A stretch of DNA of 64,000 bases from a virus (taxonomy: Duplodnaviria; Caudoviricetes): positions 1-64,000 of the IMG/VR virus record IMGVR_UViG_3300019378_000009; one strand, written 5' to 3'. Below the pieces are notes generated by a model, which was given only the letters and a program-made list of their open reading frames with translations, did not search any database and had not been told where the DNA came from. Shown piece by piece: positions 102-15,010 of this stretch. A program made the translations under genes and the position numbers. The first letter of the stretch is position 1. The number at the start of each line of letters is the position of its first letter.

Positions 102-133
102 ATTTATAGAAAGAATGAGAAAGGGTGATGTGA

Positions 134-613: not shown

Positions 614-707
614 TGTTGCGGGCGGAAAATTAAAATTTTGCCTTCAAAAAATTGCTTTTATCTTGTTTTATACTATAATATTTATATAAGAAGAAAGGAA
701 AAACTAA

Positions 708-938
708 ATGATTAAAGATAGAACTTATCAGTGTCCCAAGTGCGGCGAAGAAGTTATGATTACTTGCGAAGATTATTCTTGCGATATGGATTCGGCTGTT
801 TGGTACTTTGTTTGTGATAAATGCAGCGCCGAATGGGCAGAATATTTTGACCTTACCTATGTAGGTTACAAGTGTGACTTTCGCTATTATGATGAGAAAG
901 GCGTGTGTACGCACGATTATAACAAGGCGGAAAATTAA
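708..938 (+). CDS. small Zn-ribbon protein
   Basis: CPKC and CDKC motifs, AGAAAGGA SD. Confidence 0.75.
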   Translation: MIKDRTYQCPKCGEEVMITCEDYSCDMDSAVWYFVCDKCSAEWAEYFDLTYVGYKCDFRYYDEKGVCTHDYNKAEN

Positions 939-958
939 AATTCCGCCTTCAAGAAAAT

Positions 959-987
959 TTGCTTTTTAGCGAAATTTGTGATATAAT
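959..987 (+). promoter_or_regulatory. sigmaA-type promoter of first tRNA unit
   Basis: TTGCTT-17-TATAAT, TGn extension. Confidence 0.75.
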
Positions 988-1023
988 ATTTATACAAAGA
1001 AAAGAAAAGAAAAAATTTTTTTT

Positions 1024-1100
1024 GGAGCAGTAGCCCAACGGCAGCAGGCGATGCACTCAAAATGCATACAGTGTGGGTTCGAATCCCACTTGCTCTACCA
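1024..1100 (+). tRNA. tRNA-Leu(CAA), short variable loop
   Basis: cloverleaf, ATGCA-CTCAAAA-TGCAT anticodon arm, TTCGAAT T-loop, CCA end. Confidence 0.9.
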
Positions 1101-1127
1101 GTAGTTGATGTCATCCTTTTCTTTCTT

Positions 1128-1153
1128 CCCGTGGTAGGCGGGTAATCCTACCA
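1128..1153 (+). ncRNA. compact H-type pseudoknot before tRNA-Gln
   Basis: CCCG/CGGG crossed with GGTAGG/CCTACC. Confidence 0.6.
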
Positions 1154-1160
1154 TCTATAT

Positions 1161-1236
1161 AGGGGTGTAGCTCATATGGTAGAGCATGGGACTTTGACTC
1201 CCTGTGTAGCAGGTTCGACTCCTGTCACCCCCGCCA
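1161..1236 (+). tRNA. tRNA-Gln(TTG)
   Basis: cloverleaf, CT-TTG-AC loop, 1:72 mismatch typical of Gln, GCCA end. Confidence 0.92.
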
Positions 1237-1260
1237 ACAAACATAAGAAAGGAAATATCT

Positions 1261-1470
1261 ATGCCTAAGTTCGTATATATTGAAGATGATCCTTATGAGG
1301 GTTATTTGCCAGACAATGAGGTGATGGCTTATCATAAGCGTCAGGCAGGTTTCGATGTAAAACATAACATTCGCACAGCGGTTAATCTTGCAACGGCATT
1401 GCCCGAAGATAGTATGGCATTTCACTTTTTGATGAGCCAAGATCCTTGGGACGACGATTGGGGGAATTAA
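1261..1470 (+). CDS. hypothetical protein
   Basis: 69-aa ORF with AGAAAGGA SD. Confidence 0.7.
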   Translation: MPKFVYIEDDPYEGYLPDNEVMAYHKRQAGFDVKHNIRTAVNLATALPEDSMAFHFLMSQDPWDDDWGN

Positions 1471-1472
1471 GT

Positions 1473-1679
1473 ATGACGCTAAAAGAAGCAATAGACATTG
1501 GTCGTGCTATGCATTGTGTAACTATTGCAGATGTAGATGAACTTATTTTTCATTTGTATGAAGATATGGGCATTTGGACAGAAGAAGAGTTGCACGAGTA
1601 TTGGAACGACTATGAAACTTGGTGTAAGCTTTATCACGAAGAATTTCCGAACGCAAAATTCATTGATTTGAAAATTTGA
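1473..1679 (+). CDS. hypothetical protein
   Basis: ATG 2 nt after upstream stop; acidic phage-like composition. Confidence 0.65.
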   Translation: MTLKEAIDIGRAMHCVTIADVDELIFHLYEDMGIWTEEELHEYWNDYETWCKLYHEEFPNAKFIDLKI

Positions 1680-1704
1680 TTTTTGGCAAAATTTATGATA
1701 TAAT
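1676..1704 (+). promoter_or_regulatory. sigmaA-type promoter
   Basis: TTGATT-17-TATAAT with TG. Confidence 0.75.
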
Positions 1705-1777
1705 ATATATGTAAGAAAGCAAGAGAAAAAACTTTTGAACCGCTGAATGTCCAGACGCGGTATATAAACCAGTGGCG

Positions 1778-1802
1778 TCCGCGGTAGGCGGAAAATCCTA
1801 CC
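1778..1802 (+). ncRNA. compact H-type pseudoknot before tRNA-Glu
   Basis: TCCG/CGGA crossed with GGTAGG/CCTACC. Confidence 0.6.
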
Positions 1803-1813
1803 TCCTTTTCTAT

Positions 1814-1888
1814 GGGTGTTTAGTCAAGCGGTTAAGATAGGTGCTTCTCAGGCATCAGACAAGAGTTCGATTCTCTTAACACCTACCA
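1814..1888 (+). tRNA. tRNA-Glu(CTC)
   Basis: cloverleaf, GGTGC-TTCTCAG-GCATC, CCA. Confidence 0.9.
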
Positions 1889-1891
1889 TAT

Positions 1892-1968
1892 GCTTCCGTA
1901 GTCTAACAGGAATAGGATAGTGCCCTTTCAAGGCATTGATGCGGTTTCGAGTACCGCCGGAAGTACCA
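1892..1968 (+). tRNA. tRNA-Glu(TTC)
   Basis: cloverleaf, GTGCC-CTTTCAA-GGCAT, CCA. Confidence 0.9.
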
Positions 1969-1971
1969 ACA

Positions 1972-2053
1972 GGCAATAAGATAGATAGGAGTAATTAACC
2001 TATTGACAAGAGCCGACCTTCTCTTCTTATTGTCAATTACATTAAGGTCAGGA
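1972..2053 (+). promoter_or_regulatory. structured leader of GIY-YIG gene (3-way junction plus pseudoknot next to the SD)
   Basis: GGCAATAAG/CTTATTGTC closing stem, two inner hairpins, loop GACCTT complementary to AAGGTC abutting SD. Confidence 0.55.
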
Positions 2054-2060
2054 TAGAATA

Positions 2061-2834
2061 ATGGTCGGTATTTATAAAATAACTAACTTAATTAATGGAC
2101 ATTCTTACATTGGTCAGTCTGTATGTATCACAGAGAGATGGAATAATCATCGCTGTGCCGCTAGAGAAGGCATAGATTATCCATTATATCGAGCAATGAG
2201 AAAATATGGATTAGATAATTTTTCTTTTGAAATTATTGAAGAATGTCCACAAGAATTGTTAAACGAAAGAGAAAAATATTGGATAAGCTATTATAATACT
2301 TATTATGATGGCTATAATCAAACATTGGGTGGTCAAGGTGCATCTGTTGTAAATCCTAAAATTACAGAAATTAAACAAGAGTTAAAACAGTTTAATTTAA
2401 CAATAAAACAAATTGCAGATAAATACAATCTTTCTCCACAACAATTGGCGGCTATTAATAATGGCAGAGCACATTTTGATGAGAATGAATCTTATCCTAT
2501 TAGAAAGAATGTATTCCAAGTAGCTACTTATATTAATAAGCACGGCGATGGAGCACCCAATCATTGTATTGATTGTAACAGACAAATAAGCAAAGGAGCC
2601 ACGCGATGTAGCGAATGTTCTCATCGCCATCAATCTAAAGCAGATAGACCAAATCCAATAATTTTAGCACAAGAAATACTTTCTATGGGATTTTGTGCCG
2701 TGGGAAGAAAATATGACGTATCTGATAATGCTATACGCAAGTGGTGTAAAGCATACGATATGCCAACCAAAAAGCCAGAAATGCAAAAATGGCTTAATCA
2801 ACAATTAGATATTACTACATCAAATGATGTTTAA
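2061..2834 (+). CDS. GIY-YIG homing endonuclease with C-terminal Zn finger/HTH
   Basis: GIYKITN...YIGQS, catalytic R and E, CxxC pairs, VGRKYxVSDNAIRKWC. Confidence 0.9.
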   Translation: MVGIYKITNLINGHSYIGQSVCITERWNNHRCAAREGIDYPLYRAMRKYGLDNFSFEIIEECPQELLNEREKYWISYYNTYYDGYNQTLGGQGASVVNPKITEIKQELKQFNLTIKQIADKYNLSPQQLAAINNGRAHFDENESYPIRKNVFQVATYINKHGDGAPNHCIDCNRQISKGATRCSECSHRHQSKADRPNPIILAQEILSMGFCAVGRKYDVSDNAIRKWCKAYDMPTKKPEMQKWLNQQLDITTSNDV

Positions 2835-2837
2835 TAT

Positions 2838-3350
2838 ACCAGTGGGTGTTCCGACACCGGTCCATGCCTCGAGAGGACAAAGTTGCGGCGTCGATGTTGT
2901 AAGTTTCACGACGATAAACTTAACTTACCGTGAGGAGACCAAAGTCCGCCAAACGATAGGCAACGATAAGGGGTTACCAATTTATCCCAAATTGGCGTAG
3001 GCTGGCAAGTGGAAGCGTTATTATCAACTTGTCTCTTGGTAGAGCAAATGGAACCATAAGGAAAAGCAATGTGCAATTTGTGGGTTTACATTAAACCCTC
3101 TAATGCGACCGAGGTAATATCAAGGCGCTCTCGGGAATGGCAAAGGGCGCGGCAGCAGCCACGAGAAGGACAACTCGTACAAAACCCAAGCTGGGGAACG
3201 CAATACAAAAGAGCCATAATGTTTGCGTAACTTGTGATGAGGCTATGTCCCTTACAAGTGGAACCTGAAACAGAGGTGTGTAGAAACCTAGCAAGGCCGC
3301 GAATCACTACAATGTGCGCACAAGGCACAGAATCGTATGTCTGTGCCTTA
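2838..3350 (+). ncRNA. unidentified large structured RNA A (~510 nt)
   Basis: GC-rich, no credible ORF, many hairpins and a pseudoknot, abuts a tRNA; boundaries approximate. Confidence 0.55.
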
Positions 3351-3353
3351 TAT

Positions 3354-3425
3354 GGCAAAACCTTCGGCAAGGAACATCGTCTCATACACGAAGTCAATTA
3401 GGATCGACACCTATTTTTGCCACCA
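3354..3425 (+). tRNA. atypical tRNA with CAT anticodon
   Basis: GGCAAAA/TTTTGCC acceptor plus ACCA, TCGT-CTCATAC-ACGA, short D arm, T-loop ATCGACA. Confidence 0.65.
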
Positions 3426-3460
3426 CGACGCGTTACATTATTGGTTTCCTCCTTTCTTTC

Positions 3461-3489
3461 TAGCGGAGGGGTAGCCGCTAATCTACCCC
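3461..3489 (+). ncRNA. compact H-type pseudoknot before tRNA-fMet
   Basis: TAGCGG/CCGCTA crossed with GGGGTAG/CTACCCC. Confidence 0.65.
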
Positions 3490-3497
3490 ACTTTTCT

Positions 3498-3573
<76 letters not shown>

Positions 3574-3759
3574 TTACCCATAGGATGAGGGTAGTTAATA
3601 GTCCTACTGTTTCTTTGTTTTAGTGAAAAACATTGGCACGACAGTAAGTGAAGTTACTGTGATGTTCTTACCATCGGTTGTAAGACACGGTTTCCGTATT
3701 TATCGTGGCGTTGACTTGGGTCCGCAAGCCTGACTAGCAAAATACGGTTATAAGAAAAT

Positions 3760-3788
3760 TTGATTTTTTGTCTAATTTGCGTTATAAT
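3760..3788 (+). promoter_or_regulatory. sigmaA-type promoter
   Basis: TTGATT-17-TATAAT. Confidence 0.7.
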
Positions 3789-3814
3789 AATTATACAAAA
3801 GAAAAAAGTTAAAT

Positions 3815-3888
3815 GCGGGTATCGTATAACAGTAGTATAACGGTCTTCCAAACCGTGGGCACCGGGCCAGCACCGGTTATCCGCTCCA
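3815..3888 (+). tRNA. tRNA-Gly(TCC)
   Basis: GCGGGTA/TATCCGC, CT-TCC-AA loop, U73, variant T-loop GCCAGCA. Confidence 0.88.
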
Positions 3889-3890
3889 AA

Positions 3891-4545
3891 GCGCAGATTG
3901 GGTGACACGAGCATGAGAAGTAGATAGCGGTTGAAAATCGTGCGGGAGAGAGTACCTCTACCCAAGAGGGAAAGTCAGAGCTTTATGGCGATAAGATAAA
4001 AGTCTGATAATGCTTATCCCACCGAAGAATACGGTATATAAACTCGCTAAGGGTGCAGAAAACCCTTCGGTTGACCTCGTTAGACACTTAGATTGTTTGT
4101 CAGGGCTTTGTAGGGATAAAGTGGTCAAAAACCTTCCGCCTCTTCTGGCGTTAACGGGCATCAGGTTGGTGATGTAAAATTTACGGCAGCGGTGGGCCGT
4201 ACCAGTACATCCGCAAGGTGGTTAGTGCTTGCACCAATAATGAAGCGACGTCGGCGGAGGCGAGAAACACCGTGGAGCCAACTAGTTCGGCGTATGTAGA
4301 CTATGTATGGAGCAGCCATCTAAAAAGCCGGGGTCTCGTATCCGTGAGCAACGAGGAGTGCATTGGAACTCTGGCACTATAAAGATTATTGATTCATTGG
4401 GCGGATATAGATGTTAACCACGTCGAGTAGCATCAAACCTTTGTCGGTCGGATAGTCCGCAAAAACACCGTGGCGGGAGCGTATCTCCTGCTCCAACCCG
4501 AGGATTGAGGGGATGGTAACTACCGACCTACTGAAACAGGTAGCA
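3891..4545 (+). ncRNA. unidentified large structured RNA B (~650 nt; may extend to 4805)
   Basis: ORF-free, GC-rich, numerous stems between tRNA-Gly and tRNA-Ser. Confidence 0.55.
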
Positions 4546-4550
4546 TAAAA

Positions 4551-4648
4551 ATTTCACACGATTCACTGGGCTCCGGGTGGTTCAACTCCACCTGTCTGGC
4601 AATGTGCTAGGCATGAGGATGTAGGATGTTGCGGAGATAGTGTGAAAT
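4551..4648 (+). ncRNA. circularly permuted tRNA-like RNA (YrlA/Y-RNA-like)
   Basis: closing stem, then T arm GGTGG-TTCAACT-CCACC, loop-closed 9-bp acceptor, D-like arm with GG, back to closing stem. Confidence 0.6.
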
Positions 4649-4807
4649 AGTTACAGTCGCGAATGTAACAAACGCGACTTCTTGGACGCAAGAGTTGCGG
4701 ACGGACGGAAGGAACATATCCGTCGTTAAAGAACCCGTATATGGTAGGCGGCGAATCAACCACGCAGAAGAATAGCAATGCACTGCGATAACAAAAGCAG
4801 CTTATAT

Positions 4808-4898
4808 GGAGGATTGGAGTAATTTGGTATCTCAAGGGATTGCTAATCCCTCCTACAGTCATCCTGTAGTACAGGTTCGAGTCCTGTATCTTCCGCCA
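4808..4898 (+). tRNA. tRNA-Ser(GCT)
   Basis: long variable arm, TT-GCT-AA loop, GCCA. Confidence 0.92.
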
Positions 4899-5038
4899 TA
4901 CAACGGGCCCCCGGCAGTTTAAAGGCAGTTCTGCCGTACTCGAGCAAACGAGGTAATGTCAAATTTTTGATATTGGGGACAAAACGACCAAAAACGCCAG
5001 AGGCGCCCAACCAAAAATTTTAACGGAGGAAATAATCT

Positions 5039-5329
5039 ATGTATTTCATTATACGCTACAATTGGAATATTAATACTTTTGCGCTTACTAATAGAAAAAC
5101 AGTAGGTTATTTTGATACGCTCTCCAAAGCCTATGATACAATTACAAAGTGTCTACCGAATGACACAGCTCGTAATACAGTAGCAATAGCAGAAATACCA
5201 GAGGGCATAGACCAATACGCACATCCAAAAATGACATTTGAGTGGTGTGAGCAGTATGATTGCTATGTACCTGTCGCGGCAGACGATCCGCGACGCAGTT
5301 TCACTATGTGTTTTACGAGCAGAGACTAA
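5039..5329 (+). CDS. hypothetical protein
   Basis: 96-aa ORF with GGAGG SD. Confidence 0.7.
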   Translation: MYFIIRYNWNINTFALTNRKTVGYFDTLSKAYDTITKCLPNDTARNTVAIAEIPEGIDQYAHPKMTFEWCEQYDCYVPVAADDPRRSFTMCFTSRD

Positions 5330-5349
5330 GTTTCTGCTCTTTTATTTTT

Positions 5350-5424
5350 ACATGGTTAGTTTAACGGAAAGAACAGATGGCTACGAACTATCAGATATGG
5401 GTTCAACTCCTGTACCATGTGCCA
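5350..5424 (+). tRNA. tRNA-Arg(ACG)
   Basis: cloverleaf, CT-ACG-AA loop, CCA. Confidence 0.9.
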
Positions 5425-5426
5425 AT

Positions 5427-5501
5427 GCCCGAATAGCATAACGGATAGTGCAGCGGATTTCTAATCCGCCTATGAGGGTCCGACTCCTTCTTCGGGTGCC
5501 A
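5427..5501 (+). tRNA. tRNA-Arg(TCT)
   Basis: cloverleaf, GCGGA-TTTCTAA-TCCGC, CCA. Confidence 0.9.
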
Positions 5502-5509
5502 AATAATAT

Positions 5510-5585
5510 ACTGGTGTAATTCAGTGGTTAGAAGCCTCGTCTGATACGCGAGTCGTCGGTGGTTCGAATCCACCCACCAGTACCA
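5510..5585 (+). tRNA. tRNA-Ile(GAT)
   Basis: cloverleaf, CT-GAT-AC loop, CCA. Confidence 0.9.
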
Positions 5586-5670
5586 CGCCAGAGATGAGTA
5601 ACAAATTAGCGCCACCTGGGCAATAAATAAAGACGCAAATAAGTAGTTAGCTGATTTAAAGCTATCATAT

Positions 5671-5756
5671 GCTCTAGTCGCATAGTGGCCGATTGCACTC
5701 GCCTTGTAAGCGAGAGACGAAAGTCCCCGTCCGTTCGAATCGGACCTAGAGCTCCA
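5671..5756 (+). tRNA. tRNA-Thr(TGT) with extra variable arm
   Basis: CTCGC-CTTGTAA-GCGAG, GAC-GAAA-GTC variable hairpin, CCA. Confidence 0.85.
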
Positions 5757-5758
5757 AT

Positions 5759-5835
5759 GCCCCCGTAGGCCAACTGGAAGAGCCGTCAGTCTTAGAAACT
5801 GAATGTTGTGGGTTCGAATCCCACCGGTGGCACCA
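5759..5835 (+). tRNA. tRNA-Leu(TAG), short variable loop
   Basis: TCAGT-CTTAGAA-ACTGA, CCA. Confidence 0.88.
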
Positions 5836-5959
5836 AAGCGTTATGGTTCGCGCTCCATCGTGGTCCATATAAAAACTGGGAGAGCCGCCAAGTATGGTAG
5901 ACTTGTCGGTAGCAAGGGGTAAAACACTACCAGTCCGATTCACGGCACCCTTGCAGTAT

Positions 5960-6033
5960 GTTCGCTTCGTATAATGGTAGTATGCTGACTCTTAATCAGT
6001 AAGGTATGGGTTCGAGTCCCATGGCGAGCACCA
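5960..6033 (+). tRNA. tRNA-Lys(CTT)
   Basis: cloverleaf, CT-CTT-AA loop, CCA. Confidence 0.9.
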
Positions 6034-6054
6034 AAAACAAAAGAAGGTAATTTT

Positions 6055-6267
6055 ATGGAACACAGAGAGTGGATTGAGTTTTTAGTAGACAAATTTATTA
6101 CCAATGAAACTAAAGTACGATGCTGCGGCAGTTGTATGGGAGGTTGCATAAATCCTACAACTTGTTTCATCTGTTGTGGTTTTTCTGCGCAACATCTTAA
6201 CGATTATATTGAAAAAATTGGCAAAGATAAACTTAATCAAGAATTTGAACAAAGAATGGTCGAGTAG
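6055..6267 (+). CDS. Cys-rich small protein overlapping tRNA-Cys
   Basis: GAAGG SD, 7 Cys in 19 codons, stop codon lies inside tRNA-Cys. Confidence 0.65.
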   Translation: MEHREWIEFLVDKFITNETKVRCCGSCMGGCINPTTCFICCGFSAQHLNDYIEKIGKDKLNQEFEQRMVE

Positions 6268-6343
6268 TCAAGTGGCTTAAGACTCCGGTCTGCAACACCG
6301 CGTACCTTAATTGGCGTGAGTTCGAATCTCACCTCGACCTCCA
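6258..6343 (+). tRNA. tRNA-Cys(GCA), long variable region
   Basis: GGTCGAG/CTCGACC, CT-GCA-AC loop, U73, CCA. Confidence 0.88.
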
Positions 6344-6368
6344 ACGCAAAATGCGCCGTGACAAAAAT

Positions 6369-6397
6369 TTGATTTTTAGCGCAATTCATGATATAAT
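6369..6397 (+). promoter_or_regulatory. sigmaA-type promoter
   Basis: TTGATT-17-TATAAT with TG. Confidence 0.75.
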
Positions 6398-6570
6398 ATT
6401 ATTGTAAGAAAGCAAAGGAAAAACTTTGTTTCTCTTGCGGGCAAGGTTATATTGGCAGAGTAGATTAACAGCCCTTAATATGAAACGCGAACTGTCCCCA
6501 CAGCACTGTGGATTACAGTGCTAGCCCAGTATGTCGGCTTGAAACTTATACCGTGTTCATACGATAGTTG

Positions 6571-6596
6571 GCGGTTGGCGACTCCGTATAAGTCGC
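6571..6596 (+). ncRNA. compact H-type pseudoknot before tRNA-Asp
   Basis: GCGG/CCGT crossed with GCGACT/AGTCGC. Confidence 0.55.
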
Positions 6597-6606
6597 ATCC
6601 TTTTCT

Positions 6607-6681
6607 GGTCATGTAGCTCAGGGGTAGAGCACCTCGCTGTCACCGAGGAGGTCGGGCTGTCGGAATGCCTCATGATCGCCA
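6607..6681 (+). tRNA. tRNA-Asp(GTC), variant T arm
   Basis: CCTCG-CTGTCAC-CGAGG, G73, T-loop GTCGGAA. Confidence 0.85.
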
Positions 6682-7409
6682 GACCCTGACATAGGGCCGC
6701 TATACTATGTTGGTTTGACTGACCGAATCAGTTGGCTATCACCTCGCCGAAAGGGTGCGGCTTCTCTTTTCACGATATGGAATTGAGTGACTTGTGGGTA
6801 CGAGATTGAACGATCGCTCACCCGTGGTTCAAAGTAACTGTGAATTAAATATCGTTTGGGTTTGGTTTCCACCCGCTTAGCGGCGAACGGACGTGTTACC
6901 GTACTGCGATAACAAACGGGGTTTTAGTTGGGAAGGTTTGTCCTATAAATTGACTTCCTCGGGAGCTCGCGTCCCCGTAAGGTTAGCTGACCAACCGCAA
7001 CTCAAGAACATTCCACGCTTGGCTTGGCGGCGAAAGGTGGCGTTGTTGGTGATTTGAGTCGAAAATTGAAATCATCGCTTTTGGGCAATTTAGTGTAATG
7101 AAATTGCTATGGAGTTCAAGTCCCAGATACGCACAGAGGCGTTAGAAGAGCCTCGCCGCGGTAAAGACCTAGCCAGTCAACTTGTACAGTCGTTAGAATA
7201 AGGACGATGCCAAAAGTCTTATTCGCCATCCTACTTGAGCCAAGCAAGAGAGGAATTGGTTTAAAATTGGGCTTGGTAAATCACGCAGGCTTTCATTTTA
7301 TATGTTTGCATCCTCGTGCGGTGGCAGTCGACGAAACAATAGATTGCGGCGGCTTTTAATAGTTGAGTCGAGGCTCTGTAGAGTCTTAAGGGTGGCACCA
7401 CAACTATTA
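6682..7409 (+). ncRNA. unidentified large structured RNA C (~730 nt)
   Basis: ORF-free, long-range stems such as GCTTGGCTT/GAGCCAAGC and TAATAGTTG/CAACTATTA, fills the gap between two tRNAs. Confidence 0.55.
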
Positions 7410-7414
7410 CATAT

Positions 7415-7490
7415 ATCTGTTTAGCTCAGCTGGGAGAGCGCCGTTCTTACAAATCGGAGGTCATAGGTCCGAGTCCTATAACAGATACCA
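7415..7490 (+). tRNA. tRNA-Val(TAC)
   Basis: cloverleaf, CT-TAC-AA loop, CCA. Confidence 0.88.
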
Positions 7491-7491
7491 T

Positions 7492-7565
7492 AGGAGGGTC
7501 AGTCAAAGGAAGGCTAGTGGTCTCCAAAACCACCAATGGGATGTCAGAATTCTCACCTCCTGCCA
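7492..7565 (+). tRNA. tRNA-Trp(CCA), variant T arm
   Basis: GTGGT-CTCCAAA-ACCAC, G73, T-loop GTCAGAA. Confidence 0.82.
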
Positions 7566-7568
7566 TTT

Positions 7569-7645
7569 GGGGAATTAGCTCATGTTGGGAGAGCATCCGC
7601 CCTGCAAGCGGAAGGTGATGGGATCGTCGCCCATATTCTCCACCA
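7569..7645 (+). tRNA. tRNA-Ala(TGC)
   Basis: G3:U70, TCCGC-CCTGCAA-GCGGA (C33), CCA. Confidence 0.88.
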
Positions 7646-7703
7646 AAACACGAACAATCCGCCATACTGGCTCCGAACTCGTGTATAAATAAACGGAACA
7701 AGA

Positions 7704-7735
7704 GGGTTTGTAGTGTGACCTACCAAAAACACTAC
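7704..7735 (+). ncRNA. H-type pseudoknot before tRNA-Asn
   Basis: GGGTT/GACCT crossed with GTAGTGT/ACACTAC. Confidence 0.5.
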
Positions 7736-7739
7736 TTGT

Positions 7740-7814
7740 GGGAGATTCGCAAAGTGGTTGTTGCATGCGGCTGTTAACCGCACTACAGGGGTTCAATTCC
7801 CTTATCTCCCGCCA
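7740..7814 (+). tRNA. tRNA-Asn(GTT)
   Basis: TGCGG-CTGTTAA-CCGCA, GCCA. Confidence 0.9.
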
Positions 7815-7976
7815 GCGGGAGTTTCGTTTGTTACCCGTGAACTGCTTACCCAAAGAAACATAGGGTAAACAAAAGCAGACCAGTATAGGTCGGGGCAAGA
7901 TGGGATAATTCCTGCAGGTCTAATGCTTCCCCGTAAAGGATACAGAGAAGACTGTGGTACTTCCTATACTAAGTAT

Positions 7977-8065
7977 GGTGAATTAGCCTAATGGTAAGGC
8001 AGCAGTCTTGAAAACTGCCGTTGGTGTGAAAGCCATTCAGGGTTCGAATCCCTGGTTCACCGCCA
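7977..8065 (+). tRNA. tRNA-Ser(TGA)
   Basis: long variable arm, CT-TGA-AA loop, GCCA. Confidence 0.92.
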
Positions 8066-8091
8066 AAATATAATAATGGAGTTGTTTAAGT

Positions 8092-8730
8092 ATGGCATAC
8101 ATTTATAAAATTACCAATCAAATTAATCAAAAATGTTATATCGGTAAAACACTAAGAACCATAGAAGTTCGTTGGAGAGAACATCGAAAAGATTATCAAA
8201 AACCAGAAAAAAGTCATCAACCGTTATACAGAGCAATGAATAAGTATGGATTTGATAATTTTGCAATTAGTATCGTCGAAGAATGTGACGACACAATTGT
8301 AGAAGAAAGAGAACGATATTGGATTGAATATTATCAATCTTTTAAAAATGGTTATAATGCTACATTGGGTGGGGACGGAAAGCCGTATATTGATTATGAT
8401 AAAGTTTGCGCTTTATATGAAATATATAAGAACCAAAACGAAGTAGCTAGGCAAATGAATATTAACAAAACTACTGTGCATTATATACTACGGCAACGGA
8501 ACATAGATATGATTCCCTCTTCTTTAGTCACGCCGATGACTACAGGTAAAGTAGTACATCAATATTCATTAAATAATGATTATATCAATACTTTTATGTC
8601 TTTAAGCGAGGCAGCTCGTTATTTAAAAGATGAGTATAATATTACTGCAAATATATCTTCTATTGTATGTAATATTGGTCGTTGTCTTTCTGGCAAAAGA
8701 AAAACTGCTTATAAATTTATTTGGAAATAA
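8092..8730 (+). CDS. GIY-YIG homing endonuclease with NUMOD1-like C-terminus
   Basis: YIYKITN..YIGKT; VHQYSLNNDYINTFMSLSEAA...TAYKFIW. Confidence 0.9.
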   Translation: MAYIYKITNQINQKCYIGKTLRTIEVRWREHRKDYQKPEKSHQPLYRAMNKYGFDNFAISIVEECDDTIVEERERYWIEYYQSFKNGYNATLGGDGKPYIDYDKVCALYEIYKNQNEVARQMNINKTTVHYILRQRNIDMIPSSLVTPMTTGKVVHQYSLNNDYINTFMSLSEAARYLKDEYNITANISSIVCNIGRCLSGKRKTAYKFIWK

Positions 8731-8742
8731 TTTTTTGTTTGT

Positions 8743-8810
8743 TGGTAGCAAAGAAAAACCAACGCCGCAGAAATGCGTATTTTGTGTTTACTGGTAGCAA
8801 AGAAAAACCA
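8743..8810 (+). repeat. 19-bp direct repeat TGGTAGCAAAGAAAAACCA x2
   Basis: copies at 8743-8761 and 8792-8810. Confidence 0.85.
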
Positions 8811-8843
8811 GAAAAAAGTAGGGAGAAAATGAAAGGTTACGGA

Positions 8844-9068
8844 ATGAAATTTAGAGCAAAAGTGCGCCTAGATACTCAAACAGAAATTGCAAACTTTGTA
8901 AATCGTGTTAGTTCTGTTTCTGTACCTGTATTCCTAACAAGTGGCGCCCTATGTGTAAGCGGAAAAAGTTTACTGGGCGCCATTTATACTATGGAATGGG
9001 ATGACCTATGGTGTGAATGTGAAGAAAACATTTATCACTTAATTGAGGACTTTATTATTGTGGATTAG
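8844..9068 (+). CDS. HPr-family protein lacking the His15 motif
   Basis: VSGKSLLG matches HPr Ser46 motif (xAKSIMG); start could be 8829. Confidence 0.7.
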   Translation: MKFRAKVRLDTQTEIANFVNRVSSVSVPVFLTSGALCVSGKSLLGAIYTMEWDDLWCECEENIYHLIEDFIIVD

Positions 9069-9083
9069 TCCGCCACGCAATAT

Positions 9084-9171
9084 GGGAGAGTAGCAAATCG
9101 GCAACTGCACTGGTCTGTAAAACCGGCACTCGTATCGAGTACAATGGGGTCGGCACCCATCTCTCCCACCA
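9084..9171 (+). tRNA. tRNA-Tyr(GTA)
   Basis: variable arm, CT-GTA-AA loop, T-loop GTCGGCA, ACCA. Confidence 0.88.
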
Positions 9172-9179
9172 AATTATAT

Positions 9180-9255
9180 GCCTGTGTAGCTTAGATGGTT
9201 AGAGCGCTGGTTTGAAGCACCAGAGAGGAAGATTCGATCGCTTCCGCAGGCACCA
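9180..9255 (+). tRNA. tRNA-Phe(GAA)
   Basis: CTGGT-TTGAAGC-ACCAG, ACCA. Confidence 0.88.
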
Positions 9256-9263
9256 AAAATGAT

Positions 9264-10025
9264 ATGAGGGACAATATGACAGGAATTTATAAATACACCA
9301 ATTTAATAAACGGTAGCTGTTATATAGGACAAGCTGTTGACTTAGTGCGCAGACACAAAGATCATAAAGTTCGTTATTGTTCACCAACATCAGAAGAATA
9401 CAATAGCGTAATACATCAAGCTTTTCGTAAGTATGGTATAGAAAATTTTACTTATGAAATCCTTGAAGAGTGTGATGTTGAGCAATTAAATGATCGAGAA
9501 ATTTATTGGATTGCTTTTTATGATAGTTACAATAGCGGCTATAATTGTGGACCAGGTGGTTCTGAAAAACATTTCTGTAAGTTTAATGCAGATATATTAG
9601 CAAGCATTACAAATGATTTGCAAAATACTGATATGACATATCAAGACATTGCTAATAAAAATGGTTGTTCTGTGGGCTTTGTTGGTGATTTTAATGCAGG
9701 AAAGTTATGGAAACAAGATGGAGTGCAGTATCCACTTAGACAACATAAGAGAAATCAAAGATTTTGCACTGTATGCAATACACCAATTAGCAAAGATGGT
9801 GTTACTGGAATGTGTTCCAAATGTTATGCCAAGTCTATTCGTACAGTTGAAAGACCGAGTGCGGAACAGTTGTTAGAAGAAGTAGCGACCTCTTCTTTCG
9901 CTGCTGTGGGGCGTAAATATAATTTAACAGATAATGCAATACGCAAATGGTGTAAAGCATATGGTTTACCCACGCATTCAAAAGAAATAAAAGATTTATA
10001 TAATCGTACGTTTTTAAGCACTTAA
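9264..10025 (+). CDS. GIY-YIG homing endonuclease, paralog of 2061-2834
   Basis: GIYKYTN..YIGQA, CxxC pairs, VGRKYNLTDNAIRKWCKAY. Confidence 0.9.
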   Translation: MRDNMTGIYKYTNLINGSCYIGQAVDLVRRHKDHKVRYCSPTSEEYNSVIHQAFRKYGIENFTYEILEECDVEQLNDREIYWIAFYDSYNSGYNCGPGGSEKHFCKFNADILASITNDLQNTDMTYQDIANKNGCSVGFVGDFNAGKLWKQDGVQYPLRQHKRNQRFCTVCNTPISKDGVTGMCSKCYAKSIRTVERPSAEQLLEEVATSSFAAVGRKYNLTDNAIRKWCKAYGLPTHSKEIKDLYNRTFLST

Positions 10026-10088
10026 TAAGTTGGCTAGGGTAAGAGGACCCGATAAGTAGTTGATAATAAAACAATAACCAGAAAATAT

Positions 10089-10165
10089 GGGACTTTAGTA
10101 CAAATGGTTCGTGCACTTGGCTCATAACCAAGCTTATCTGGGTTCAAATCCCAGGGGTCCCACCA
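10089..10165 (+). tRNA. tRNA CAT (Ile2 or elongator Met)
   Basis: CTTGG-CTCATAA-CCAAG, paired 1:72, ACCA. Confidence 0.85.
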
Positions 10166-10173
10166 ATTAATTT

Positions 10174-10249
10174 GCAGGTGTAGCAGACTGGTAATGCACT
10201 CGACTTTTAATCGAGGTAATGTAGGGTTCGAATCCCACTACCTGCACCA
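10174..10249 (+). tRNA. tRNA-Lys(TTT)
   Basis: CTCGA-CTTTTAA-TCGAG, ACCA. Confidence 0.88.
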
Positions 10250-10275
10250 TATGTCAATATAACAGGAGGTAAACT

Positions 10276-11040
10276 ATGACAACTAAATATTTTGTAGTAA
10301 GTGATGTTCATGGCTTTTACTCCTTACTTATGAAAGCACTCAAGCAGCAAGGATTTGAAATAAACAATCCTTCTCATCACCTTATCATTTGCGGCGATGC
10401 TTTTGACCGCGGCAAGGAAGCAAAACAATTACAAGATTTTCTTGTGTCTATGCAAGAACAAAATCGTTTGATATATATTTGCGGCAACCACGAAGATTTA
10501 ATGCTTGAAATGATAAGAGATTTGCCGCAGATTTGCGACCATATAGAGTGGACGCATCACGCAAGCAATGGTACTGTTTCTACTCTGTTGCAGCTTACAG
10601 GAATGACACTCTCACAAGTTAAGCGTGATCCATATCGTGCAATAGAGTATTTTACTCACACTCCATTTTATAAGCAACTGTTGCCAGAAATAGTAGATTA
10701 TGTGGAAATTGGTGACTGCGTGTTTGTACATGGTTGGATACCTTGTTTTTCTCATTTGCATAATTGGCGCGAAGCCTCTAATAGCGAATGGAGAGAAGCA
10801 AGATGGTGGAATGGTATGGAATTGTGGCGCAATAAAGCATGCCGCGAATCCGGAAAAACCATTGTTTGTGGACATTGGAACTGTAGCTGGGGCTGGGCAC
10901 AAGAGGATTGCGAAACATATACGGAATGGGGACAGAGTGCAAACTTCGAACCCTATGATCGTGAAGGTATTCTCGCTATTGACGGATGCGTTGCATACAG
11001 CGGAATTATGAATTGCGTAGTATTGGAAGTTGACAATTAG
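10276..11040 (+). CDS. calcineurin-like metallophosphoesterase
   Basis: DVHG, GDAFDRG, GNHE, VHG, GHW motifs. Confidence 0.9.
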   Translation: MTTKYFVVSDVHGFYSLLMKALKQQGFEINNPSHHLIICGDAFDRGKEAKQLQDFLVSMQEQNRLIYICGNHEDLMLEMIRDLPQICDHIEWTHHASNGTVSTLLQLTGMTLSQVKRDPYRAIEYFTHTPFYKQLLPEIVDYVEIGDCVFVHGWIPCFSHLHNWREASNSEWREARWWNGMELWRNKACRESGKTIVCGHWNCSWGWAQEDCETYTEWGQSANFEPYDREGILAIDGCVAYSGIMNCVVLEVDN

Positions 11041-11058
11041 TCCAAGTTGTGTTATAAT
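11030..11058 (+). promoter_or_regulatory. consensus sigmaA promoter
   Basis: TTGACA-17-TATAAT with TG. Confidence 0.85.
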
Positions 11059-11091
11059 ATACTCGGAGAAGAAGTAAAAGGACGGTATATT

Positions 11092-11715
11092 ATGATAAAC
11101 ACTACGCGTTTACGCTTAATCATTGGATGGTTAGCTATTTCATTATCGCTAATTGTACTTATATTATCTTTAAGTTTTGGTTTTGGTTTTCCAGACTCAA
11201 TTTCTGCAACTTATTATTTTGATACTTGTATTACGCCTTTTATGATTATTTTGGGTTCCGCAAGCATTTTATTATTTAGTTATCGTGGTTATGACAAGCA
11301 AGATGATATAATATGCACTATAGCGGGTATTTTGGGATTGTGTATTTGTCTTTTTCCTTGCATGACAACGCCAGTACCAATGGCTTTTGTTGGTACTTTC
11401 CATTTGCCTGTAATATTAAGTGGTATAATTCACAATATAACAGCTGCGGGATTTTTTGCATTGTTGGCATATAATTCATTATTTTTGTTCACCAAAAGTG
11501 GCGAAATTATGACCGATAAAAAGAAAAAGCGTAATTTAGTTTTTCGCATCTGCGGTATTGGTATGTTAGTAGCATTTGCGCTAATTATTCCGGTCGCGAT
11601 TTTTCAAATACATGGTTTAACTTGGGTGCTTGAATTTATTGCGTTAAGCTTTTTTGGAATATCTTGGTTAACAAAAGCCAATTATTATTCTTGGCTTTTC
11701 GCAGAAAAAGACTAA
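11092..11715 (+). CDS. multi-pass membrane protein (DUF998-like)
   Basis: about 6 hydrophobic segments, SISxxY and H..A motifs. Confidence 0.75.
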   Translation: MINTTRLRLIIGWLAISLSLIVLILSLSFGFGFPDSISATYYFDTCITPFMIILGSASILLFSYRGYDKQDDIICTIAGILGLCICLFPCMTTPVPMAFVGTFHLPVILSGIIHNITAAGFFALLAYNSLFLFTKSGEIMTDKKKKRNLVFRICGIGMLVAFALIIPVAIFQIHGLTWVLEFIALSFFGISWLTKANYYSWLFAEKD

Positions 11716-11723
11716 ATTAAAAT

Positions 11724-11752
11724 TTGATTTTTAACAAAATTTATGCTATAAT
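11724..11752 (+). promoter_or_regulatory. sigmaA-type promoter of the giant-RNA transcription unit
   Basis: TTGATT-17-TATAAT with TG. Confidence 0.8.
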
Positions 11753-11852
11753 ATTTATAGAAAGAACAAAGAAGTCTGGAATTTTTATCGCGCTGATGTT
11801 AGTCAGACTTAAAAGAGGAAACGCGCGCTCAATCTTTGTTCTTTTGTTTAAT

Positions 11853-11926
11853 GGGTTGCTAGTTTAACGGTAAAACGGCAGATTGTGGCTCTGCTCTTAG
11901 TAGTTCAATTCTACTGCTTCCCTCCA
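11853..11926 (+). tRNA. tRNA-His(GTG), atypical acceptor
   Basis: GCAGA-TTGTGGC-TCTGC; two U:U acceptor mismatches, no encoded G-1/C73. Confidence 0.78.
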
Positions 11927-11997
11927 AGTTCCCATCCAGATGACCCTGAGATGTCTATATGGGCATACTATAGACAGAGAGATGGGAACTATTATTT

Positions 11998-12072
11998 GCA
12001 GGTATAGTATAATGGTTATTATGAGTCCTTGCCAAGGATTAGATGTGGGTTCAATTCCCATTACTTGCTCCA
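11998..12072 (+). tRNA. tRNA-Gly(GCC)
   Basis: AGTCC-TTGCCAA-GGATT, U73, CCA. Confidence 0.9.
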
Positions 12073-12260
12073 GGCTGACGAGGTAGATTGGCAATCTACG
12101 AGGTCTGAGCCGTTGTATCACAACTTGCCCAGTGTTGGCGGACTAGTAGGTATACGCAGCATAAATCATAGACCAAGTGGGATGTTCCCCAAAACTCTAT
12201 GGGGTCTATGTACCTGTCCATAATGAATACCCGAACCAAAAGGCAGAAAACCTCTGCAAC
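12073..12260 (+). ncRNA. unidentified structured RNA D (~190 nt)
   Basis: stems GTAGATT/AATCTAC, CATAGACC/GGTCTATG; no ORF. Confidence 0.4.
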
Positions 12261-13458
12261 TTTTGCACTGTTGCCAATAGTACCAGTATGCACCAAAAGG
12301 TACTAACACACATTTGAGTTAGCAAATAAGATTGTGTTGTCTAACGCGGCAGGTGTCGTCTCCCATACGATAATGGGATGCCAAATGCAGAGGCTGGCAA
12401 CCTGCCGTTTCGCTTGACGATATAAGCTACGGAAAGATTCGGTAGAAATATCGAACTGCACGTTGGTGCTACGAAGATCCCTTAAGCCGTTAGCCGTAAA
12501 GTAGTGGAGCTTATGCTGAGAAGTTATTTTACGTGAATCGGGGTGCTTGCAGGTTCTGTAATTCGTTTGTTAATCGTGAGAACTGTTGGGGCGGGGTTGT
12601 GCCGAGAGCTGTAGTAAATGGAGTTAGAAGAACAGCCAACGAGTTAAATATTTGGTGCCACGAAGCGCCGCCTACACTGAGTATTAAGACTCGACGTAAA
12701 AGGGAATGGTGAAGCAGAAGCAGTGGTAAATGGAATGTGATAAACAGCCAATGAATCAAAAAAATTGTATAGGTATCAGGTAAGATTAAGATAGCTCTGT
12801 AGTGACAAAGAGAACGCTAGAAATAGAGATGAGGTTGCAAACCCTCTGGAGCATACGCCTATACTACAGAACAGAAAACTGTACAAACAATGTCCGTGGA
12901 CTGAAACGGCCACAGGCGAGGATAGGGAAAATATCGCCGTAAATATTTGGTGCCTACTCGGGGAATACAGGTGGTAGGATAAATGAGACGACCCAGCCAG
13001 CCAAATATAGCAAACAATTAAGGTAGTGGACGGACGGGACGACGGTGAAATGACGTTGTGTTGATTGTTTGCGAAAAACTTGGGAGTCGGTGGAACAGAT
13101 CGCCCCGACAGAGCATCCACAGCATCGTTAAGCATTTACCTCTACTGTGCTATTGAAAATCTACGATCCAGCGAGCCGGCCGCTATTGTCGGTAAAACCC
13201 CGATATCGTAGAGTTGGGTACCGCAAGAAGGTGGATAAAAGCGGGATAAAAATGTTATCACCAAACCTCGAAAATAGCAGGCAGTTGAAATACAATGCAC
13301 CATTTCGAGTGAGTCCAAAGGCCGTGCCTATACGACCGCGGTTGAACCTCAAGGCCACGCGAGTGGTACAAGGTAAAAGTAGGCTGAAATACCGCTGGCA
13401 AAATTGCAAATCGGATACGCAGATATGGGCTAAGTAAACGCATATCTCAAGTGCACAA
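12261..13458 (+). ncRNA. ROOL-like giant RNA, expanded (~1200 nt)
   Basis: terminal pairing TGCACT/AGTGCA; 5' CACCAAAAGG..AGCAAATAAG and 3' CAATGCA..GTCCAAAG..AAGT.GGCTGAAA..TCTCA motifs resemble ROOL as recalled. Confidence 0.6.
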
Positions 13459-13459
13459 C

Positions 13460-14197
13460 GAAGAGGAGCCGAGGATTTAGGAAACGTAGGACAACGGAGT
13501 GTAGATAGCTCGTCGCAAGAAATTTGAGGAGTTGACCGTCTTTCTTCACGGGCGGATGCCAAAGGTCATTGCTCACCCATCCTTGTGTTATTCATCGTGA
13601 GAACGAGCGTGTAATACAGAACAATGTTGAGTTGTTCAAGTGTGGGAAGAGTTGAGGTTTCGCTCAAGGAAGAACCTCTGGGCGTTTCCGAATATTGTAA
13701 TGGGTGCGACGGCACTCGTAACATATTGTTAAACAAACTATCGAAAAGTAGTAGGTCCCCTCGACGGCTGTTGCCGGGCACGGATTGGACTGAGGGATAA
13801 GTGGGAAGGTAGTGAACTGCCTACGGTGGAAGCAAGAACGTGTTGTGGATGCTTAGATAGTGATAGGGGCTGGCATACGTGCCCTGGTCCCACCTTACAC
13901 GAGTTGAACTCGTGATAGACGCTTTAACTGGGCGTCGCGGCGGTCCCTACGCAGAAATAGGGGCTACACTTCGAGTGTGGCAAAATGTTTTACTTCGCCT
14001 TTAGAGGTGCGCTCGCAGGACGAGCCAACCAATCCACGGGTTGTAAAATAAACACGAAAAGCGCGTCTTAGACAAAAGGCGGTTCTATCATATGCTAGTG
14101 ATATGATATTTGGGAGGGAATGTTAGGTGGCGTCCCAAAGTGTAATAGGTGGCGATAACCGCAGTGAAGCAACCCAATGCGTGAAGAGGTTGTGGCA
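13460..14197 (+). ncRNA. unidentified large structured RNA E (~740 nt)
   Basis: at least 15 hairpins plus long-range GGAAACG/CGTTTCC; ORF-free. Confidence 0.55.
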
Positions 14198-14206
14198 TTA
14201 TATAAT

Positions 14207-14281
14207 AGGCAGGATTTGCCCGAAGTGGTAATTCTGGAAGACACTTACGGTGATGTGGGTTCGATTCCCGCCGGACAGCCT
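14207..14281 (+). ncRNA. tRNA-like element without a normal anticodon arm
   Basis: TTGCCCG/CGGACAG acceptor-like stem, perfect T arm GTGGG-TTCGATT-CCCGC, no CCA. Confidence 0.5.
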
Positions 14282-14315
14282 GTGATAGTTATATAGTGAA
14301 ACCGTAAATAAATAT

Positions 14316-14389
14316 ACAGAATGTGATGTAACAGTAACATACGAGTTTTGGGAACTTGAGTAGCGGGGCGGCACCGACATTCTGTACCA
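14316..14389 (+). tRNA. tRNA-Pro(TGG), variant T arm
   Basis: CGAGT-TTTGGGA-ACTTG, ACAGAATG/CATTCTGT, ACCA. Confidence 0.78.
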
Positions 14390-14416
14390 GTATTAAATAA
14401 GTCAGGAGATGCTATT

Positions 14417-14539
14417 ATGTATACCAAAGAACTTCGTAAGCTCATTATTGAAAATCGTCTTGCAAGATTGGCTACCAATGGTAAAGACAATTGGCCGATA
14501 CGCAAGAAGCTCGAAAGAGAATTGAAGAAATATTCCTAA
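14417..14539 (+). CDS. 40-aa basic protein (below ORF-track cutoff)
   Basis: AGGAGA SD, MYTKELRKLIIENRLARL... Confidence 0.6.
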   Translation: MYTKELRKLIIENRLARLATNGKDNWPIRKKLERELKKYS

Positions 14540-14544
14540 ATTAG

Positions 14545-14572
14545 TCCCGAATTTATTCGGGATTTTCTTTTT
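14545..14572 (+). terminator. intrinsic terminator ending the RNA island
   Basis: TCCCGAA/TTCGGGA hairpin plus U tract. Confidence 0.75.
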
Positions 14573-14580
14573 GAAAAAAT

Positions 14581-14609
14581 TTGATTTTTTTTAAATTTTA
14601 TGGTATAAT
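14581..14609 (+). promoter_or_regulatory. sigmaA-type promoter
   Basis: TTGATT-17-TATAAT with TG. Confidence 0.75.
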
Positions 14610-14630
14610 AATATTAGAAAGGAGAAGCAG

Positions 14631-14840
14631 ATGAAGTTATATGAAAAACTAATAAGGCTTTTTATTGCCTTTTGTTTATGTTTTAGCGCTGGCTTTTCAA
14701 TGATTTGTGCTATTGCATTTTTATGCGCATGTATACAATATGGAGCGTTTGTAGCAGGAGTAACAGGTATATTATGGGCAATTTTCGCAAATTTTCAAGC
14801 AGTTACAGCAGAAGAATATGTGAAGGGAGTTTATTTATGA
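14631..14840 (+). CDS. small membrane protein
   Basis: two hydrophobic segments, AGGAG SD. Confidence 0.7.
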   Translation: MKLYEKLIRLFIAFCLCFSAGFSMICAIAFLCACIQYGAFVAGVTGILWAIFANFQAVTAEEYVKGVYL

Positions 14841-15010
14841 TTAAAACAGAATGTATAAATTGTACAAAATCTAATTATTGCGGCAAAGATAGTTTCGGTA
14901 ATTTGCGTTTTGGGTGCAACAACTCTTTTTGTGTAAAAGAAGATGTCGTACCAAACAAATACCGCGATGAAATTCTACAGGAGTATAAGAATGGCGGCAA
15001 GAATTCTTGA
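14837..15010 (+). CDS. small Cys-rich protein
   Basis: ATGA overlap with upstream stop; CxxC. Confidence 0.55.
   Translation: MIKTECINCTKSNYCGKDSFGNLRFGCNNSFCVKEDVVPNKYRDEILQEYKNGGKNS

Follow-up and report, generated by a model that had tools for sequence, protein, structure and literature searches.

Separately conserved RNA modules in the tRNA island of a gut/rumen phage

Does a long gene-free stretch in a phage transfer RNA (tRNA) operon encode one large RNA or many small ones? The question is posed by IMG/VR record IMGVR_UViG_3300019378_000009, a complete phage genome of 109,428 bp with direct terminal repeats, whose bases 1–64000 were analyzed here (64,000 nucleotides (nt), hereafter the window). 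The phage is of the gut/rumen type. The left 14.5 kb of the window is an RNA island, in which tRNA genes are interleaved with five blocks (B1 to B5) that the initial annotation of the sequence had read as five discrete giant RNAs. We favor a different answer, to which we assign a probability of about 0.6: the island consists of phage tRNA operons loaded head to tail with many independent structured RNA genes of ~60–230 nt. Comparison of related sequences shows this modular make-up in B4 and at the end of the island, and we infer it for the rest. The array and the blocks are as follows.

1024–12072, + strand: array of 25 canonical tRNA genes for 18 amino acids, all encoding CCA (ARAGORN and Infernal RF00005)
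2838–3353, + strand: B1, orphan, GC-rich and free of open reading frames (ORFs), its end alternatively at 3497; no Rfam similarity, no homolog found
3886–4807, + strand: B2, orphan, base for base between tRNA-Gly(UCC) and tRNA-Ser(GCU); no homolog
6679–7414, + strand: B3, orphan, between tRNA-Asp and tRNA-Val; no homolog
12073–13458: B4, composed of the units listed further below
13460–14208, + strand: B5, orphan apart from a piece of ~60 nt (13917–13975) common with a Clostridia metagenome-assembled genome (MAG) contig from sheep colon

The blocks are non-coding, lie in tRNA transcription units and match no described Rfam family. Their longest open frames, read with the standard code and with each single-stop reassignment, are of 72–119 amino acids (aa) and are all antisense or spurious, and control genes read through cleanly in the same test. 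An alternative genetic code was rejected, as reassigning any single stop fails to open the blocks. The GC content of the blocks is 46–49%, versus about 29–38% in the flanking coding DNA. The absence of ORFs and the GC-richness noted at the outset are both upheld, and so is the adjacency of blocks and tRNAs. B2 occupies every base between the CCA that ends one tRNA (at 3885) and the start of tRNA-Ser (at 4808), B3 fills the interval from tRNA-Asp (which ends at 6678) to tRNA-Val (which starts at 7415), and B4 begins directly after tRNA-Gly (which ends at 12072). B2, B3 and B4 thereby start on the base after CCA, and the first two end on the base before the next tRNA. The ORF-free, gene-free, GC-rich sequence in the tRNA operons totals ~4.3 kb. 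A crude count of stretches of 350 nt or more that lack ORFs and tRNAs and exceed coding DNA by 7 or more GC points comes to ~3 kb in the window, versus a maximum of 0.73 kb among 65 comparable 15–21-kb loci of other phages with the same phosphatase gene. The amount in this island is unusual, and uncatalogued RNA sequence can make up over 4 kb of a single phage tRNA island.

The blocks had also been described as hairpin-dense, which did not prove to be above chance. The z-scores of minimum free energy (MFE), computed globally and locally (120-nt windows), do not differ from the values for coding controls, and the blocks do not outdo dinucleotide-shuffled sequence. The M1 region of B4, a covarying structured RNA, also scores ~0 in this test; for this reason, the folding-energy measure is uninformative here. 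B2 holds a closed 98-nt domain (4551–4648) with a T-arm-like hairpin and a fold z-score of −2.9, for which an exact-pattern scan of GTDB genomes returned nothing. Beyond the M1 copies and the promoters, we found no paralogy among the blocks, and they are therefore not copies of one RNA.

We compared the island with the catalogued RNA families. Rfam 15, searched at gathering thresholds over the whole window, returned tRNAs only. Nothing relevant appeared at E ≤ 1 over 1–16000, nor at E ≤ 10 when the block regions (12073–14400, 2838–4807 and 6344–7414) were searched one by one. None of the five blocks (0/5), even at E ≤ 10, matches any family described in Rfam 15. The ROOL model (RF03087, gathering score 99.1 bits) has no match at E ≤ 10 on any block, while it scores 296 bits on a positive-control locus from a related phage (L064). 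B4 as a double-sized ROOL was rejected on the same two results. GOLLD (RF01998) matched neither the window nor the blocks, in a search made without a GOLLD positive control. Group I and group II introns were likewise rejected, with no Rfam intron match and with complete flanking tRNAs. Ribozymes (HDV-like and others) and Y RNAs gave no match in the Rfam search of the blocks. Inspection of the starts of B2, B3 and B4 by eye found no 7-bp P1 partner after 3885, 6678 and 12072, and no P1/P3 nested pseudoknot. Directly after tRNA-Gly, at 12073–12111, there is a 39-nt hairpin whose internal loop is symmetric (GAG/GAG) and may form tandem sheared G-A pairs. Its likeness to a hammerhead core is loose, with a G at the essential A14 position, and no Rfam model matches it.

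The answer to the question comes from B4. When the blocks were compared by BLAST with the fetched related loci, matches fell in B4 only, at short and sharply conserved cores. These cores belong to the following units.

12131–12265, + strand: M4, a conserved structured unit (part of B4), common to two other phages
12459–12643, + strand: M1 copy 1, long form, its long insert common with the fourth M1 copy of a second phage (L120, below)
12650–12755, + strand: M1 copy 2, short form, 79 bits with the M1 model R1
12940–13008, + strand: candidate minimal M1-like unit, tentative (the repeat 12940–12954 equals 12645–12659)
~13195–13425, + strand: M2, a conserved RNA of ~230 nt (3′ part of B4), with homologs and covariation

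M1 is built from a closing stem (P1) with GG/CC at its end, followed directly by P2 (UGCYAC/GURGUA), a junction of the GAAGC type, a variable insert of ~40–130 nt and a conserved 3′ strand (AAAUGGARU..GA.RAACAGCC). The core is formed by the 5′ and 3′ ends, the 3′ strand being 19 nt long, and the insert is hypervariable. In the first alignment, of 17 distinct instances, 91.9% of the cells are paired, and the covariation score is reached by none of 500 shuffles. A covariance-model search for M1 then gave 107 matches from 100 sources, representing 76 distinct sequences. The larger alignment has 94.8% of its cells paired and 197 doubly changed cells, versus 78 in shuffles. The Y/R pair of P2 changes from U-A to C-G in 24 of 73 sequences, and the covariation signal collapses when the pairing partners are slid. 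In the island, model R1 scores the interval 12644–12759 at 79 bits. The interval 12455–12647 has all M1 core features and is itself a seed sequence of R1, yet it was not found again through the search filters. The candidate unit at 12940–13008 shows an M1-like 5′ start, P2-like pairing and a closing stem of 9–10 bp; R1 does not detect it.

An exact-pattern scan of IMG/VR placed M1 on at least 117 stretches, mostly of phages of 50–260 kb, and M1 is also found on contigs of gut and rumen Clostridia MAGs. It has no match in Rfam 15. In the tRNA-bearing loci, the nearest tRNA has the same orientation as the M1 copy in every case (90/90) and lies within 300 nt for 60 copies. The distances to tRNAs vary widely, and the idea of M1 as a fixed-distance tRNA 3′-processing element was rejected on that account. 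On the strength of these alignments, M1 is a real and widespread RNA family of tRNA arrays that is absent from Rfam. It is common in large gut/rumen phages of Clostridia and offers a concrete target for RNA biochemistry (the search for a protein partner, and a role as decoy or guide). The second phage mentioned above (G050/L120; IMGVR_UViG_3300024270_000031) has four tandem M1 copies with no tRNA nearby. Beside this array, at 1621–4364 of L120, are genes for a 5′-nucleotidase-like protein, a Thg1-like protein of the tRNA-His guanylyltransferase type, an HD-domain protein and a metallophosphoesterase, of which the nucleotidase, Thg1 and HD genes were named by eye from their translations. It is possible that this cluster is a tRNA-repair cassette linked to the RNA arrays.

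M2 is common to four other distinct phage sequences (L186/L193, L185/L187, L188 and L191). Its alignment (A5) contains six pairs with compensatory change, such as GCGG/CCGC to GUGG/CCAC. M2 sits directly after a tRNA in L191, and in G050 it is 14 kb apart from the M1 array. The homologs of M4 (L047/L099 and L072/L101) retain its flanking sequence, and the changes in their central hairpin are all compensatory. An earlier reading of 12147–12220 as an acceptor stem with CCA was given up, as this segment is better explained as part of M4. M4 is present in two records (G021 and G041) from neither of which an M1 or M2 match was listed, in the course of searches not dedicated to that point. M2 and M4 have no match in Rfam 15. 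Because the units are separately conserved in different phages, B4 is a train of independent evolutionary units and not a 1.2-kb ROOL-like RNA. The claim of five discrete giant RNAs is not supported for the sole block comparable across phages, which splits into at least four separately conserved units. A row of exchangeable small RNA genes can pass for one giant RNA. The uncatalogued and widespread M1 family, the modules M2 and M4, and an atypical tRNA-Pro-like gene (M3, described below) are solid additions to what is known.

Homologs of the other blocks were sought in 49 + 5 + 50 + 1 entire phage records and in 5 MAGs, all of which have M1, the phosphatase or the promoter type in common with this phage, and in a second set of 114 further M1-bearing loci. 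B1, B2, B3 and B5 had no significant match in either set, with one exception in B5: an exact match of 24 nt (13917–13940), itself a small hairpin, on a 106-kb contig of a sheep-colon Clostridia MAG; next to it comes a second hairpin, with a compensated stem and a CAGAA loop that is conserved. Model R1 found no M1 copy in these four blocks. Other routes to relatives gave the same outcome. Against GenBank phages (megablast and blastn), the island has tRNA matches only; single-query searches of IMG/VR with FolD (14943–15839) or with a flanking 159-aa protein yielded nothing for the blocks; and a metagenome collection scanned with FolD gave four short close relatives only, with block homology in none of the four. 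The expectation that homologs would covary is thereby borne out in part: M1, M2, M3 and M4 covary or show compensatory change, and B1, B2, B3 and most of B5 have no homologs.

Four points weigh against the modular reading of the whole island. B1, B2, B3 and most of B5 (~2.9 kb) are without comparative evidence, and their modularity is extrapolated from B4. Within B4 itself, the stretches 12266–12458, 12756–12939 and 13009–13194 belong to no recognized unit. Decomposition into MFE domains misses even the known M1 borders in B4, for which reason it cannot delimit units. All tRNAs encode CCA and some of them are directly abutted by blocks of 0.7–0.9 kb, and no ribozyme was found by Rfam or by inspection. 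With CCA encoded and the blocks abutting directly, an endonucleolytic cut must free the tRNA 3′ ends.

We propose the following sequence of events for the modular island. Small-to-medium structured RNA genes would be inserted head to tail into phage tRNA operons, and B1, B2, B3 and B5 would be built like B4, from units specific to the lineage. The long transcripts would be cut by the tRNA-processing machinery, by RNase P at each downstream tRNA and then by endo- or exonucleolytic trimming of the 3′ ends; maturation by tRNA processing is plausible. The units may then act in trans on tRNA/RNA metabolism or on host defense, with decoys or tRNA mimics directed at host nucleases as one example. Such a role in trans would be in keeping with the genes of the tRNA-repair type (Thg1-like, HD and metallophosphoesterase) that adjoin the arrays of relatives. 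In this reading, which is the best supported of those considered, the RNA units turn over quickly between phages.

The alternative that survives best, although we hold it unlikely, is a single large, ornate RNA of 0.5–0.9 kb, specific to the lineage, in each of B2, B3 and B5 and perhaps in B1; such an RNA would occupy the niche of ROOL and GOLLD and be excised by the flanking tRNAs. The base-for-base bounding of B2 and B3 by tRNAs is what this would predict, and the block sizes match those of GOLLD and ROOL, which are found near tRNA islands (PMC12286853); in the same neighborhood of a related phage, 73 nt separate ROOL from the tRNA before it. Nor do B1, B2, B3 and B5 contain internal repeats or known small modules, M1 included. 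However, the 98-nt closed domain in B2 and the separately conserved piece of B5 look like small units, the large-RNA models of Rfam are silent at E ≤ 10, and the four blocks have no homologs and hence no covariation, while B4, the only block that could be put to the test, proved modular. Somewhat more doubtful again is the stronger proposal that at least one of B2, B3 and B5 is a single new giant RNA (0.7–0.9 kb) excised by flanking tRNAs, in which case the phage would have several RNAs of the ROOL/GOLLD class together with M1 arrays as a multi-RNA system directed at host RNA metabolism or defense. The orphan blocks (~3 kb) remain candidates for new large RNAs.

Improbable by comparison is a non-functional or DNA-level origin of the orphan blocks, as decayed genes, tRNAs or introns, as homing-endonuclease spacer, or as an element for replication or packaging close to the end of the genome: their lack of conservation outside this lineage in ~110 phage records, the three GIY-YIG endonuclease genes in the island and a folding energy no better than that of shuffled or coding sequence would agree with it, but the last of these tests fails equally on the proven M1, the blocks resemble no tRNA, intron or protein, and they lie in transcription units, from promoter to terminator, on the strand of the tRNAs. 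Replication origins tend to be rich in AT and to contain iterons, of which none were seen. The GC content is 10–15 points above coding DNA, as in the tRNAs and the proven modules, and such an excess is how structured RNA usually stands out in AT-rich genomes.

Returning to the favored reading of tRNA operons loaded with small RNA genes, the niche is that of ROOL and GOLLD and the sequences are something else. ROOL and GOLLD are enigmatic RNAs already known from phage tRNA islands. Like them, the blocks are phage-encoded, non-coding, GC-rich relative to the genome, and placed in or beside tRNA islands. Unlike them, the blocks have no similarity to these RNAs in sequence or structure, and B4 is a chain of 100–230-nt units where theirs is one RNA of 600–800 nt. 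The blocks do occupy sites at which related phages carry ROOL or RAGATH RNAs. In the related locus L064, RAGATH-33 and ROOL (1437–1561 and 3897–4495) lie near tRNAs and the phosphatase. In L067, RAGATH-18 (5900–5960) has the same tRNA/phosphatase neighborhood.

Another comparison is with the species 1 and 2 RNAs of phage T4, small stable RNAs of its tRNA cluster. These, the RAGATH RNAs and the tRNA-like RNAs of Weinberg 2017 (PMC5737381) are likewise small structured RNAs among tRNAs of the same strand, presumably matured by tRNA processing. In Rfam 15, none of these families matches M1, M2 or M4. Compared with RNAs of the T4 and RAGATH kind, the density of the present island (more than 4 kb, probably more than 10 units) is unusual, as are the tandem M1 arrays with hypervariable inserts. 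A survey of IMG/VR for candidate structured viral RNAs (Fremin et al. 2023, PMC10690425) lists 8,495 unnamed candidates, among them phage tRNA-like structures, and gives no functions for them; its candidates are absent from Rfam. It draws on the same data source and concerns the same kind of element; M1, M2 and M4 were matched to no named entry and may be among its unnamed candidates.

Two further systems share particular traits with the island. HDV-like theta ribozymes adjoin phage tRNAs (Kienbeck et al. 2024, PMC10879173). Their starts, like those of B2, B3 and B4, lie a few nt at most from the 3′ end of a phage tRNA, and such ribozymes would solve the problem of 3′ release at the blocks that abut CCA; but the blocks have no match to the HDV family in Rfam, and no nested pseudoknot was seen by eye at the starts of B2, B3 and B4. 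In the manner of a Y RNA (YrlA), M1 combines a conserved handle, made from paired 5′ and 3′ ends, with a variable module, and occurs in several copies in tRNA operons. It differs in that no TROVE/Ro60 gene is present, no YrlA model matches, and the handle sequence is unrelated as far as could be judged. A Ro60 partner for M1 was rejected, as the complete genome holds no TROVE domain, control genomes were matched in the same search, and no Y RNA family matches.

The verified tRNA complement is smaller than first thought. The initial annotation gave 28 tRNAs covering all 20 amino acids; ARAGORN and Infernal together verify 25, for 18 amino acids. ARAGORN counts 23 within 1024–12072, all on the + strand, and Infernal RF00005 adds 6607–6678 (Asp, GUC by reading) and 3815–3885 (Gly, UCC by reading). 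That every tRNA has the same orientation is correct. Both programs leave Pro and Trp without a tRNA in the window, no tRNA-Trp was found there, and a relaxed ARAGORN run produced noise only. Beyond the window, the genome has two further tRNAs, at ~81.9 and ~100.6 kb. The match at 81858–81959 of the genome is 102 nt long, ~30 nt over the usual length, which may reflect an insertion, an intron or a long variable arm. Two atypical tRNA-like genes narrow the gap to the original count, and a third element resembles a tRNA in part.

14316–14389, + strand: M3, atypical tRNA-Pro-like gene (alignment of seven sequences; fold)
3354–3425, + strand: candidate atypical tRNA, tentative (scan for acceptor stem with NCCA; fold)
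14209–14282, + strand: tRNA/tmRNA-like element with a canonical T-arm and without acceptor pairing (T-arm match of the transfer-messenger RNA (tmRNA) model; fold uninformative)

M3 is 75–82% identical to sequences in eight other phage loci. In the seven-sequence alignment it folds as a cloverleaf with an acceptor stem of 9–10 bp, a D arm of 4 bp and an anticodon stem of 5 bp; the 7-nt anticodon loop always carries NGG followed by G37, the variable region is of 5 nt, the T stem is of 3 bp, and NCCA is invariant. Compensatory change is present in 12 of its 22 pairs. ARAGORN and the Infernal tRNA model RF00005 both miss it. Judged from this alignment, M3 is most simply an atypical tRNA-Pro-like gene overlooked by both tRNA finders, and it suggests that standard tools under-count phage tRNA sets. 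The element at 3354–3425 has a 7-bp acceptor stem, a CAU-type anticodon loop (the arm being read by eye), a T-like arm and an ACCA end. The tRNA finders miss this one as well, and its assignment as an atypical tRNA, made from this single sequence, is tentative. At 14209–14282, the tmRNA model RF00023 gives just a 17-nt T-arm match (at 14255; 13 bits). A tmRNA identity was rejected for this element, which has the T-arm match alone and no acceptor pairing, and an exact-pattern scan of IMG/VR for this T-arm element at the end of B5 returned nothing.

The transcription units of the island can be outlined from predicted signals.

1676–1704, + strand: phage promoter copy, TTGATT-17-TATAAT (repeat families D4/D7; promoter scan)
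73–101, 3760–3788, 6369–6397, 11724–11752 and 14581–14609, + strand: further promoter copies (repeat families; promoter scan)
11030–11058, + strand: perfect sigma-70 consensus (promoter scan)
14417–14564, + strand: 40-codon ORF followed by a terminator-like hairpin and U tract, at the end of the last RNA transcription unit (sequence; terminator scan)

The promoter motif consists of AAATTTGATTTTT, a spacer of 17 nt and TATAAT, with AAATT upstream and often with TG. The blocks had been placed downstream of strong promoters, which stands insofar as a repeated motif of the consensus type precedes the units (predicted only); it does not stand for B1, which has no promoter of its own and follows a GIY-YIG gene. 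The terminator-like hairpin at 14543–14564 closes the last unit, and the 40-codon ORF at 14417 belongs to no Pfam family. The promoter-like motif recurs in many related IMG/VR phages, and one MAG contig (G109:C48, more than 136 kb) has dozens of copies; this points to a host group shared among Clostridia.

Four protein genes of the island bear on its history or on the search for relatives.

2061–2834, + strand: GIY-YIG homing-endonuclease-like gene (Pfam PF01541, with NUMOD1/HTH)
8092–8730 and 9264–10025: two more GIY-YIG genes (Pfam PF01541)
10276–11040, + strand: calcineurin-type metallophosphoesterase (Pfam PF00149), the marker gene for related loci

GIY-YIG (Seg-like) genes interleaved with tRNAs are the arrangement of the T4 tRNA region too, and the three homing endonucleases may drive the turnover of the island content. 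The metallophosphoesterase has homologs of 65–80% identity on ENA/Logan contigs of up to 115 kb; in IMG/VR its homologs are only ~44% identical, and 80 of the loci around these were retrieved for comparison. FolD similarly has many relatives at 73–86% in ENA/Logan, and an alignment search of IMG/VR gave no close (73–86%) relative. Its ORF has 298 codons, and its homologs are of ~279 aa, with alignments that begin at residue 17, which makes the ATG at 14991 the probable true start.

Two kinds of leader-like sequence accompany the tRNAs. A GC-rich hairpin and a CUUUUCU-like tract recur 8–12 nt upstream of tRNA-Glu, tRNA-Met and tRNA-Asp (1783–1802, 3468–3489 and 6578–6596), as a pre-tRNA leader. 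The segment 10029–10079, 50 nt on the 5′ side of the tRNA-Met at 10089, is 85–88% identical in four phage loci (L217, L283, L294 and L223) and is, by this conservation, another putative conserved leader or small RNA.

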